NCBI GenBank assembly: GCA_008369845.1
Contig: MRSU01011082.1
Location: forward strand, 1-53,705
DNA: 53,705 bases
Source: Trichomonas gallinae
Lineage: Eukaryota
Direction: 5' to 3'
Below, piece by piece: positions 33,059 through 33,682 of this stretch (position 1 is its first letter; each line of letters starts with the position of its first letter). Both the position numbers and the translations under genes were made by a program. The notes under the pieces were generated by a model that was not told the origin of the DNA, searched no databases, and was given only the letters and a program-made list of their open reading frames with translations.

Positions 33059-33682
33059 TCATTTAGTTAATTTTGATCTTCTGACATATGGTGGATGATA
33101 TGGATAATATGGAAGGTAATTATTGGACTCATTCGGGTTTTTGATGAATTGTCTTATTATATATCCTCCAATTTTGAAAAGCTCACTAATCGCAGGTTCA
33201 ATGAACTTATCCCATGGGATAGCATTATCAGGATCAAACTCTTCGTTCTTCATGATTCGATCCCAGATACTTGGAGGTAGAGCATTTTCTTCAAGAGAAT
33301 TACGTCCATATTTTTTGGCAACATCAACCGCAATTTTTGTAACGGTCTCAACTACAACTGGTATCAAAGGAACTACCCATGCAGGAATGTTTTCTGGATC
33401 GTCATCATTGCTTATTCTTCTTTGGTAATCTTTATAAAGCTCTTTGTATTGTGGAATTCCGTTTTCTTCTAATTCGTTATTCAATAGGCCACCGATTATG
33501 CCTTGGATGACACCAATAACAATTGGCCATGGGATAGGGTTATCTGGATCTTCATCCTCGTTAGATAACTTGTAACTTGGCTTATACGGCAATATTGATG
33601 GTCTAATAATATCACGATGGTGTTCATCAAAGCCGCGTCCCCAACCTGCCTGTGTTGTTAAGACACTGAAGAATGCTAACAT
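33059..33682 (-). CDS. Secreted multi-peptide precursor-like protein (Asn-bounded acidic spacers plus amphipathic cores)
   Basis: 207 aa with a short hydrophobic signal (MLAFFSVLTTQA) and three repeats of [peptide]-N-xxxDP(D/E)N-[amphipathic peptide]-N-xLEEN-like. An Inr-like TCATT lies at 33695-33691. Confidence 0.85.
   Translation of the reverse strand: MLAFFSVLTTQAGWGRGFDEHHRDIIRPSILPYKPSYKLSNEDEDPDNPIPWPIVIGVIQGIIGGLLNNELEENGIPQYKELYKDYQRRISNDDDPENIPAWVVPLIPVVVETVTKIAVDVAKKYGRNSLEENALPPSIWDRIMKNEEFDPDNAIPWDKFIEPAISELFKIGGYIIRQFIKNPNESNNYLPYYPYHPPYVRRSKLTK

Follow-up and report, generated by a model that had tools for sequence, protein, structure and literature searches.

A Trichomonas gallinae gene encoding a candidate multi-peptide precursor that may be processed at asparagine residues by a legumain

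Does a trichomonad parasite make a secreted polyprotein that is cut at asparagine (Asn) residues to yield several peptides? This question was raised by an open reading frame (ORF) in the 53,705-nt stretch of T. gallinae DNA that we analyzed (contig MRSU01011082.1, referred to here as the window). A first-pass annotation had placed the ORF at positions 33059 to 33682 and assigned it a 207-aa product, and retranslation of the minus strand gave the same ORF and the same protein, which is designated P0001. The ORF was intronless and ended with a TGA stop codon. Three types of data supported the gene call: the translation, a full-length homologue, and a codon adaptation value (0.72) typical of the 16 other ORFs in the window, which spanned 0.66 to 0.76. 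A TCATT initiator-like element, which we take to correspond to the trichomonad Inr consensus, was located 13 to 9 nt upstream of the ATG (33691 to 33695, minus strand); five short TCATT-like matches were found within 100 nt upstream of the ATG, and such matches were common.

The window was AT-rich (GC content, 0.28 to 0.42) and carried long, intronless eukaryotic ORFs, which included kinases, a dynein heavy chain, a gamma-tubulin complex protein, an M28 peptidase, and two GNATs. The adjoining gene (29982 to 30917) encoded a PP2A catalytic subunit that was 93% identical to its best match, which was from T. vaginalis, compared to 68% and 63% for the listed Tritrichomonas foetus and Histomonas matches, respectively. 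The precursor gene was alone in the 4.4-kb gap between the PP2A gene and a kinase gene (30918 to 35338), and a gap of this size was long for a gene-dense window. Rfam yielded no matches in the gap surrounding the precursor gene. Short ORF fragments at about 31909 to 32614 in the gap might represent a decayed gene, and a degenerate tandem duplication of about 142 to 151 nt, whose pieces were 80 to 92% identical, was found at 31022 to 31295. The duplication looked like a dispersed repeat because many loose ends of DNA run X1 mapped there. Close PP2A relatives were present in DNA run X1 and nothing in that run covered the precursor gene, although such a hole is no proof of absence. No legumain or modifying-enzyme gene was adjacent to the precursor gene, a Pfam scan identified no legumain gene among the window's 19 other ORFs, and no DUF3328 gene was found among the window ORFs scanned in Pfam. 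Elsewhere in the window, a 664-aa ORF (5038 to 7032) with a short hydrophobic N terminus matched a Chlamydia Pmp repeat (E = 9e-6) and is probably a trichomonad Pmp-like surface protein; a lipoate-protein ligase (28387 to 29412) had a short N-terminal extension that presumably resembles the hydrogenosomal presequence pattern; a pair of GNAT acetyltransferase genes (49990 to 51525) was adjacent and convergent; and two ORFs (10607 to 11338, 243 aa, and 48727 to 49620, 297 aa) had no Pfam match at E 0.1.

The first-pass annotation had proposed that all 15 Asn residues of P0001 were located at the ends of peptide cores or in six short spacers. Our recount placed Asn at exactly the positions that had been listed (41, 48, 68, 69, 74, 92, 98, 128, 133, 146, 153, 182, 184, 187, and 188) and agreed with the proposed distribution. 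However, the agreement, including the absence of Asn from 151 core-interior positions, was partly circular because Asn was used to define the cores; therefore, we used tests that were independent of that definition. The pattern examined was an Asn, 3 to 7 residues with at least two Asp or Glu residues, a second Asn, and then at least 12 Asn-free residues. It occurred five times in P0001, and the maximum was four in 100,000 shuffles. When the core cutoff was lowered to 10 residues, five occurrences were reached in 1 of 448 ORF windows across the analyzed stretch, and the next best had three. In addition, the sequence x?-[I/L]-P followed all six spacer-ending Asn residues, and at least six such occurrences were found in 3 of 100,000 shuffles. 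Asp and Glu made up 19 of 37 spacer residues versus 11 of 158 core residues (p = 3e-9), and Lys and Arg made up 0 of 37 versus 23 of 158 (p = 0.009); these layout p-values were optimistic because all of the rules were chosen after inspection of the sequence, and the margins were large. The asparagine/spacer/core layout is real and unusual.

Some of what had been said about the layout did not stand. Asn had been described as a common residue in this AT-rich genome, but the other ORFs contained an ordinary level (5.9%). The proposed alternation of two spacer types was seen in the first five spacers (DPDN, LEEN, DPEN, LEEN, and DPDN); the sixth (residues 183 to 188) was ESNN, a degenerate LEEN-type spacer. 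The cores had been described as divergent, and instead of free divergence we found two alternating core classes. Cys was absent from P0001, and its three dibasic pairs (aa 88, 123, and 201) were all inside cores and none were at junctions.

The segments of P0001 are described here from the N terminus, and all of the coordinates are on the minus strand. Residues 1 to 12 (33647 to 33682) were called manually as a predicted short ER signal peptide with Thr at -3 and Ala at -1; the 7-residue hydropathy maximum of this leader was 2.63, and 1 of its 12 positions was changed in the homologue. The next segment (aa 13 to 41; 33560 to 33646; net charge +2), which is either core 1 or an N-terminal pro-segment, was the most variable, with 12 of 29 residues differing in the homologue. 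It was followed by acidic spacer 1 (aa 42 to 48; 33539 to 33559), which was of the DPDN type and had no differences at its seven positions. Core 2 (aa 49 to 68; 33479 to 33538) was neutral, rich in Ile and Gly, and amphipathic (hydrophobic moment 0.49, shuffle p = 0.003); it started with an Asn-Pro bond and was invariant in the homologue. After LEEN-type spacer 2 (aa 69 to 74; 33461 to 33478) came core 3 (aa 75 to 92; 33407 to 33460), with a net charge of +2 and an amphipathic character (moment 0.49, p = 0.010), and then spacer 3 (aa 93 to 98; 33389 to 33406), a DPEN-type spacer with one D/E change in the homologue. Core 4 (aa 99 to 128; 33299 to 33388; net charge +2) combined a hydrophobic N-terminal half with an amphipathic helix, and its hydrophobic moment (0.49) had a p of 0.033 in P0001 and 0.14 in the homologue; the residues Ser-Leu were located directly after it, at the start of LEEN-type spacer 4 (aa 129 to 133; 33284 to 33298). 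Core 5 (aa 134 to 146; 33245 to 33283) had a net charge of +1 and a moment of 0.51 (p = 0.08), and DPDN-type spacer 5 (aa 147 to 153; 33224 to 33244) was located within a 36-nt DNA repeat that was shared with spacer 1 and was 78% identical between the two sites. Core 6 (aa 154 to 182; 33137 to 33223) was an amphipathic helix with a net charge of +1 (moment 0.58, p = 0.036), and degenerate spacer 6 (aa 183 to 188; 33119 to 33136) contained the sole N-glycosylation sequon (N184). The last segment, core 7 (aa 189 to 207; 33062 to 33118), was rich in Pro and Tyr, had a net charge of +4, and was not amphipathic (moment 0.10, p = 0.87). Thus, four of the seven cores (2, 3, 4, and 6) had helical hydrophobic moments above those of their own shuffles (p = 0.003 to 0.036, uncorrected), and cores 1 and 5 were borderline. 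An AlphaFold model that was built from only three sequences had a pLDDT of 34.8 and no fold, and it placed helices on the cores with low confidence.

Residues 42 to 92, 93 to 146, and 147 to 207 formed a threefold repeat of a unit that contains two cores. The order in each unit was a DP[D/E]N acidic spacer, a long class A core, a LEEN-type spacer, and a short class B core. Alignments of the units had a p of 0.001 or less for all three pairs at the protein level and a p of 0.001 to 0.024 at the DNA level. The class A cores (cores 2, 4, and 6; 20, 30, and 29 aa) were long and hydrophobic with a Trp near the start, and the class B cores (cores 3, 5, and 7; 18, 13, and 19 aa) were shorter and cationic. 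When the ends were removed, 2 of 21 pairs of core interiors were alike at a p of about 0.03, and the rest were hardly similar. Judged from these alignments, the junctions were kept while the cores diverged following the triplication.

A search for homologues yielded one full-length protein (P0002; 208 aa), which was 84% identical to P0001. Its cluster mate, P0003, differed from it by one residue, so there was one independent homologue and the case for conservation amounted to two alleles. The reading frame was intact in the homologue across 33 to 34 differing columns, including an in-frame, one-codon indel. Fourteen of the 15 Asn residues were retained; the exception was N188, the second of a pair, which was replaced by Ala while N187 was retained. 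One extra Asn was present directly before the core 6 terminus in P0002 and was absent from P0003. When boundary positions were taken as the spacer, the preceding Asn, and the first three core residues, 2 of 61 boundary positions differed in the homologue versus 30 of 134 core-interior positions (p = 0.0006; p = 0.012 without core 1). For the spacers alone, the counts were 2 of 37 versus 30 of 158, a difference that was marginal (p = 0.049) and was not significant without core 1 (p = 0.25). The first-pass annotation had expected homologues to keep Asn at the boundaries and to conserve spacers more than cores. The former was borne out, as was a lower variability of the boundaries, but the evidence for the latter was marginal, and core 2 did not vary at all. 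In this one comparison, the pattern of differences supports the idea that the junctions are under constraint.

Additional relatives were scarce. A tblastn search of the window found no second copy of the precursor, a search of near-length proteins yielded 1 match among 72 candidates, and a search of longer proteins yielded none among 7,998 scored, which is weak evidence. A phmmer search of 1.84 billion protein representatives returned two matches, the second of which (P0004) was an unrelated 1,318-aa tandem-repeat protein with 22% identity. None of the 228 candidates in metagenome contigs and none of the 62 candidates in viral contigs were related. In bacterial and archaeal genomes, 2 of 23 were weak matches, and inspection indicated that these were unrelated ORFs with few shared residues. 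When DNA was searched with the pattern DP[D/E]N-x-IPW, the multi-spacer layout was found in none of the 120 loci among the matches listed (about 240 were estimated), and the best layout score among these 120 loci was two, compared to five in P0001. A PDB search produced chance-level matches only (best E = 0.049), and P0001 matched no Pfam family at an E of 0.1 or less. Because no annotated T. vaginalis relative appeared in the near-length, longer-protein, or phmmer searches, the gene may be confined to its lineage, may have gone unannotated, or may have diverged too far for detection. The top match in the ESM Atlas was a bombinin antimicrobial-peptide precursor cluster with a score of 0.78 (144 of 256 features common to both), which was under the level reached by shuffled proteins one third of the time and is a lead only, not evidence; a second Atlas search gave no usable match. 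In the papers searched, the five exact junction motifs were not found, and the leading titles and abstract openings contained no protist Asn-processed multi-peptide precursor.

How does P0001 compare to known precursors? The Bombina bombinin/bombinin H precursors (PF05298) resemble it in that one precursor combines a signal peptide and an acidic spacer with mature peptides of two classes, and they differ in having KR convertase sites, a Gly amide donor, and two cores (PMC12999879). In contrast, P0001 has Asn junctions, seven cores, and no core that ends in Gly. Because there was no Pfam match at E 0.1, we regard the likeness to bombinin as analogy and not as homology. Precursors of the Ece1/candidalysin type also contain several cores that are released by a secretory-pathway protease. 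Fungal KEPs resemble P0001 in that they come from a microbial eukaryote and have an ER signal and several cores freed by a protease of the secretory pathway (PMC7329392), but P0001 has no dibasic site at any junction and its cores are dissimilar. Plant AEP precursors (cyclotide, PawS1/SFTI-1, and hevein hololectins) share Asn at P1, a hydrophobic P2', and pro-segment and core modules that are repeated by internal duplication (PMC5741643, PMC8209628, PMC9127739). They are set apart from P0001, which lacks Cys and a cystine knot, has Asn at both ends of its spacers, has cores that look like linear amphipathic helices, and comes from a parabasalid protist. The cyclotide-type Asn-x-Leu sequence followed cores 2 and 4 only, and these cores start with Pro and Ile-Pro. 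As for AMP-Lcn972, TvSAPLIPs, NlpC/P60, and GH19/GH25 of Trichomonas, the likeness is one of genus and of a proposed role against the microbiota; as described, these effectors are folded domains, several of which were acquired from bacteria (PMC12612818, PMC11288935), whereas P0001 had no such Pfam domain and no bacterial relative was found. On its sequence features, P0001 fails to show the defining features of the bombinin, KEP, and cyclotide families. By analogy, it would work like a hybrid that combines the multi-core layout of animal and fungal precursors with plant-style Asn processing.

Because Asn was found at every junction, the protease that is indicated is a legumain (C13). Legumains cleave after Asn, and T. 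vaginalis is reported to have ten C13 genes (PMC4450334). The first-pass annotation had stated that trichomonads encode several legumains, in keeping with the figure of about ten for Trichomonas (PMC4450334, PMC10892250). TvLEGU-1 and TvLEGU-2 have been sited in the Golgi, lysosomes, and vesicles (PMC4450334, PMC10892250); TvLEGU-2 in particular was placed in secretion vesicles as well as the Golgi and lysosomes and is secreted (PMC10892250), and the phagolysosome proteome includes TvLEGU-1 (PMC8717582). In P0001, P2' was Ile or Leu at five of the six spacer-ending Asn sites, and P1' was Asp, Glu, or Ser at four of the six core-ending Asn sites. These residues fit the preferences of the Arabidopsis legumains, which favor a hydrophobic P2' and a small or acidic P1', with AtLEGbeta favoring Asp, Glu, or Ser at P1' in protein substrates (PMC7489914). 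A hydrophobic P2' is preferred by plant-type legumains more generally (PMC7489914; PMC8209628), and human legumain prefers a basic rather than a hydrophobic P2' (PMC13052201).

Two of the junctions contained Asn-Pro bonds, namely N48-P49 at the start of core 2 and N182-P183 at the end of core 6. Asn-Pro bonds are generally poor legumain substrates. Butelase, moreover, rejects Pro as the incoming residue (PMC8209628). At spacer 6, N184, N187, and N188 could serve as alternative sites, and core 6 would then gain two residues; for core 2, either part of spacer 1 may stay attached or a further trimming step may be required. We also considered processing by a dipeptidyl peptidase, which is the melittin-type route. 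It was rejected as the sole mechanism because the spacers were not X-Pro/X-Ala runs, although the Pro-alternating start of core 2 could be trimmed in this way. Overall, the precursor is probably processed at Asn and, if so, a legumain is very likely to be the enzyme that makes the cuts.

Our main reading, to which we assign a probability of roughly 0.5, is that P0001 is a secretory or lysosomal precursor that a legumain would cut into about seven peptides, most of them amphipathic and likely antibacterial. The idea of a multi-core precursor, as put forward in the first-pass annotation, drew support from the layout statistics, the internal repeat, and the boundaries of one homologue, and it was weakened by the marginal conservation of the spacers alone. 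In the proposed pathway, the 12-aa leader would direct the precursor to the ER, and the acidic spacers would balance the charge of the cationic cores so that these stay latent during transit. Once the precursor had reached acidic vesicles of the Golgi, lysosomal, or secretory type, a C13 legumain would cut after each Asn. A Pro that is the second or third residue from each new N terminus would stop trimming by aminopeptidases, and the absence of internal Asn would protect the cores from the same legumain. With the spacers cut on both sides, the products would be linear peptides. The long, hydrophobic class A peptides would enter membranes, and the short, cationic class B peptides would assist them, either in the phagolysosome or at the parasite surface.

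Trichomonas feeds on bacteria and uses lysozymes and Lcn972-type peptides against them (PMC12612818), and it has lytic saposin-like proteins (PMC11288935). By analogy with frog-skin precursors, in which acidic spacers hold amphipathic helices inactive, the predicted peptides most likely serve as an antibacterial cocktail, and if P0001 is processed at Asn by a legumain, then membrane action against bacteria is a likely outcome. Six of the seven cores had net charges of 0 to +2, which are low values for antimicrobial peptides, and, because the class A peptides share this low charge, lysis of host cells is also possible. The same Asn processing would then yield a main product that resembles candidalysin, with class A cores that damage epithelium or red cells. 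Cores 2, 4, and 6 combine hydrophobicity with a net charge of 0 to +2, which is nearer to haemolytic peptides than to bacteria-selective ones; bombinin H is of the hydrophobic class and haemolytic (PMC12999879); and the invariance of core 2 in the homologue is also consistent with this idea. We judged it to be unlikely, however, as the sequence names no target, and such a peptide would not be a genus-wide virulence factor because the near-length, longer-protein, and phmmer searches yielded no annotated relative from T. vaginalis. The released peptides could also be signals, either pheromone- or hormone-like, that act between parasites or between parasite and host instead of disrupting membranes. 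Mating factors and pheromones are among the fungal Kex2 repeat proteins (PMC7329392). In keeping with a signaling role, the class B cores of P0001 are short polar segments, one of which (core 7) is rich in Pro and Tyr and non-helical. Pheromone precursors usually repeat near-identical cores, whereas the seven cores of P0001 are dissimilar and four are amphipathic, which makes a signaling role quite unlikely. A third use of the same sites would be transpeptidation, with the legumain closing some cores head to tail as in plant cyclotides and SFTI-1, a reaction of which legumains are chemically capable (PMC8491156, PMC8209628). Five of the six post-spacer cores have Ile or Leu at position 2, a P2'' residue that is accepted by butelase 1 and favored by AtLEGbeta (PMC8209628, PMC13052201), and core 3 starts with Gly-Ile-Pro, which human legumain accepts as an incoming peptide (PMC8491156). 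Cores 4 and 2 end in Asn-Ser-Leu and Asn-Asn-Glu-Leu, respectively, and thus have Leu at P2' of an Asn. However, core 3 ends in Asn-Asp-Asp, core 4 starts with Ile-Pro, and core 2 starts with Pro, which butelase rejects (PMC8209628). There is also no Cys to join the termini, and helical cores would hold the termini far apart. Because suitable starts and suitable ends are on different cores, we consider cyclization very unlikely.

Two other explanations do without Asn processing. P0001 might remain intact as a secreted or membrane-associated protein that is mostly disordered, in which linkers of Asn, Asp, and Pro cap the amphipathic helices and the repeats reflect the internal triplication. Helix caps and turns are often formed by Asn, Asp, and Pro, repeated linkers would follow from triplication alone, and the low-confidence model put helices on the cores. 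Yet this explanation accounts neither for Asn at both spacer ends and its absence from the core interiors nor for a conserved post-spacer x?-[I/L]-P next to diverging core interiors, and the model, with its three input sequences and its pLDDT of 34.8, predicted no fold. We regard it as rather unlikely. The N terminus might otherwise be a hydrogenosomal presequence, given that aa 1 to 17 match ML[STA]...R[NFESG], which we take to be the presequence pattern, or the ORF might not be a gene at all. The homologue misses the pattern and retains a hydrophobic 12-aa leader, and the full frame was retained there through an in-frame one-codon indel, with codon usage in P0001 that was typical; both ideas are highly improbable.

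Returning to the legumain-processed precursor, we can tentatively extend it, at clearly less than even odds, to an independently evolved, legumain-based ribosomal peptide system of trichomonads, in which long hydrophobic and short cationic peptides from one gene are paired, much like a frog-skin cocktail but cut at Asn in place of basic sites, and some are possibly cyclized by the legumain itself. P0001 would then be the first member seen of a so far hidden group of hypothetical proteins that evolve rapidly and provide the expanded trichomonad legumain family with its endogenous substrates. Trichomonads damage epithelium and reshape the microbiota of mucosal surfaces; the cited accounts describe effectors that are folded enzymes or domains (PMC12612818, PMC11288935). 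If the main reading is true, P0001 would represent a new class of small effectors that tend to escape standard annotation and trypsin proteomics. The layout predicts exact peptide termini and linear monoisotopic masses, which are 2068.24, 2270.18, 3273.92, 1539.82, 3405.89, and 2440.31 Da for cores 2 to 7, respectively; a cyclized form would be 18.01 Da lighter (3255.91 Da for core 4). Parabasalid proteomes could be screened with the junction pattern of an acidic spacer followed by Asn and x-[I/L]-P. Within the literature searched, P0001 would give the approximately ten trichomonad legumains their first candidate for an endogenous peptide substrate, and Asn-based multi-peptide maturation, which is known mainly in plants, would have arisen in a protist.
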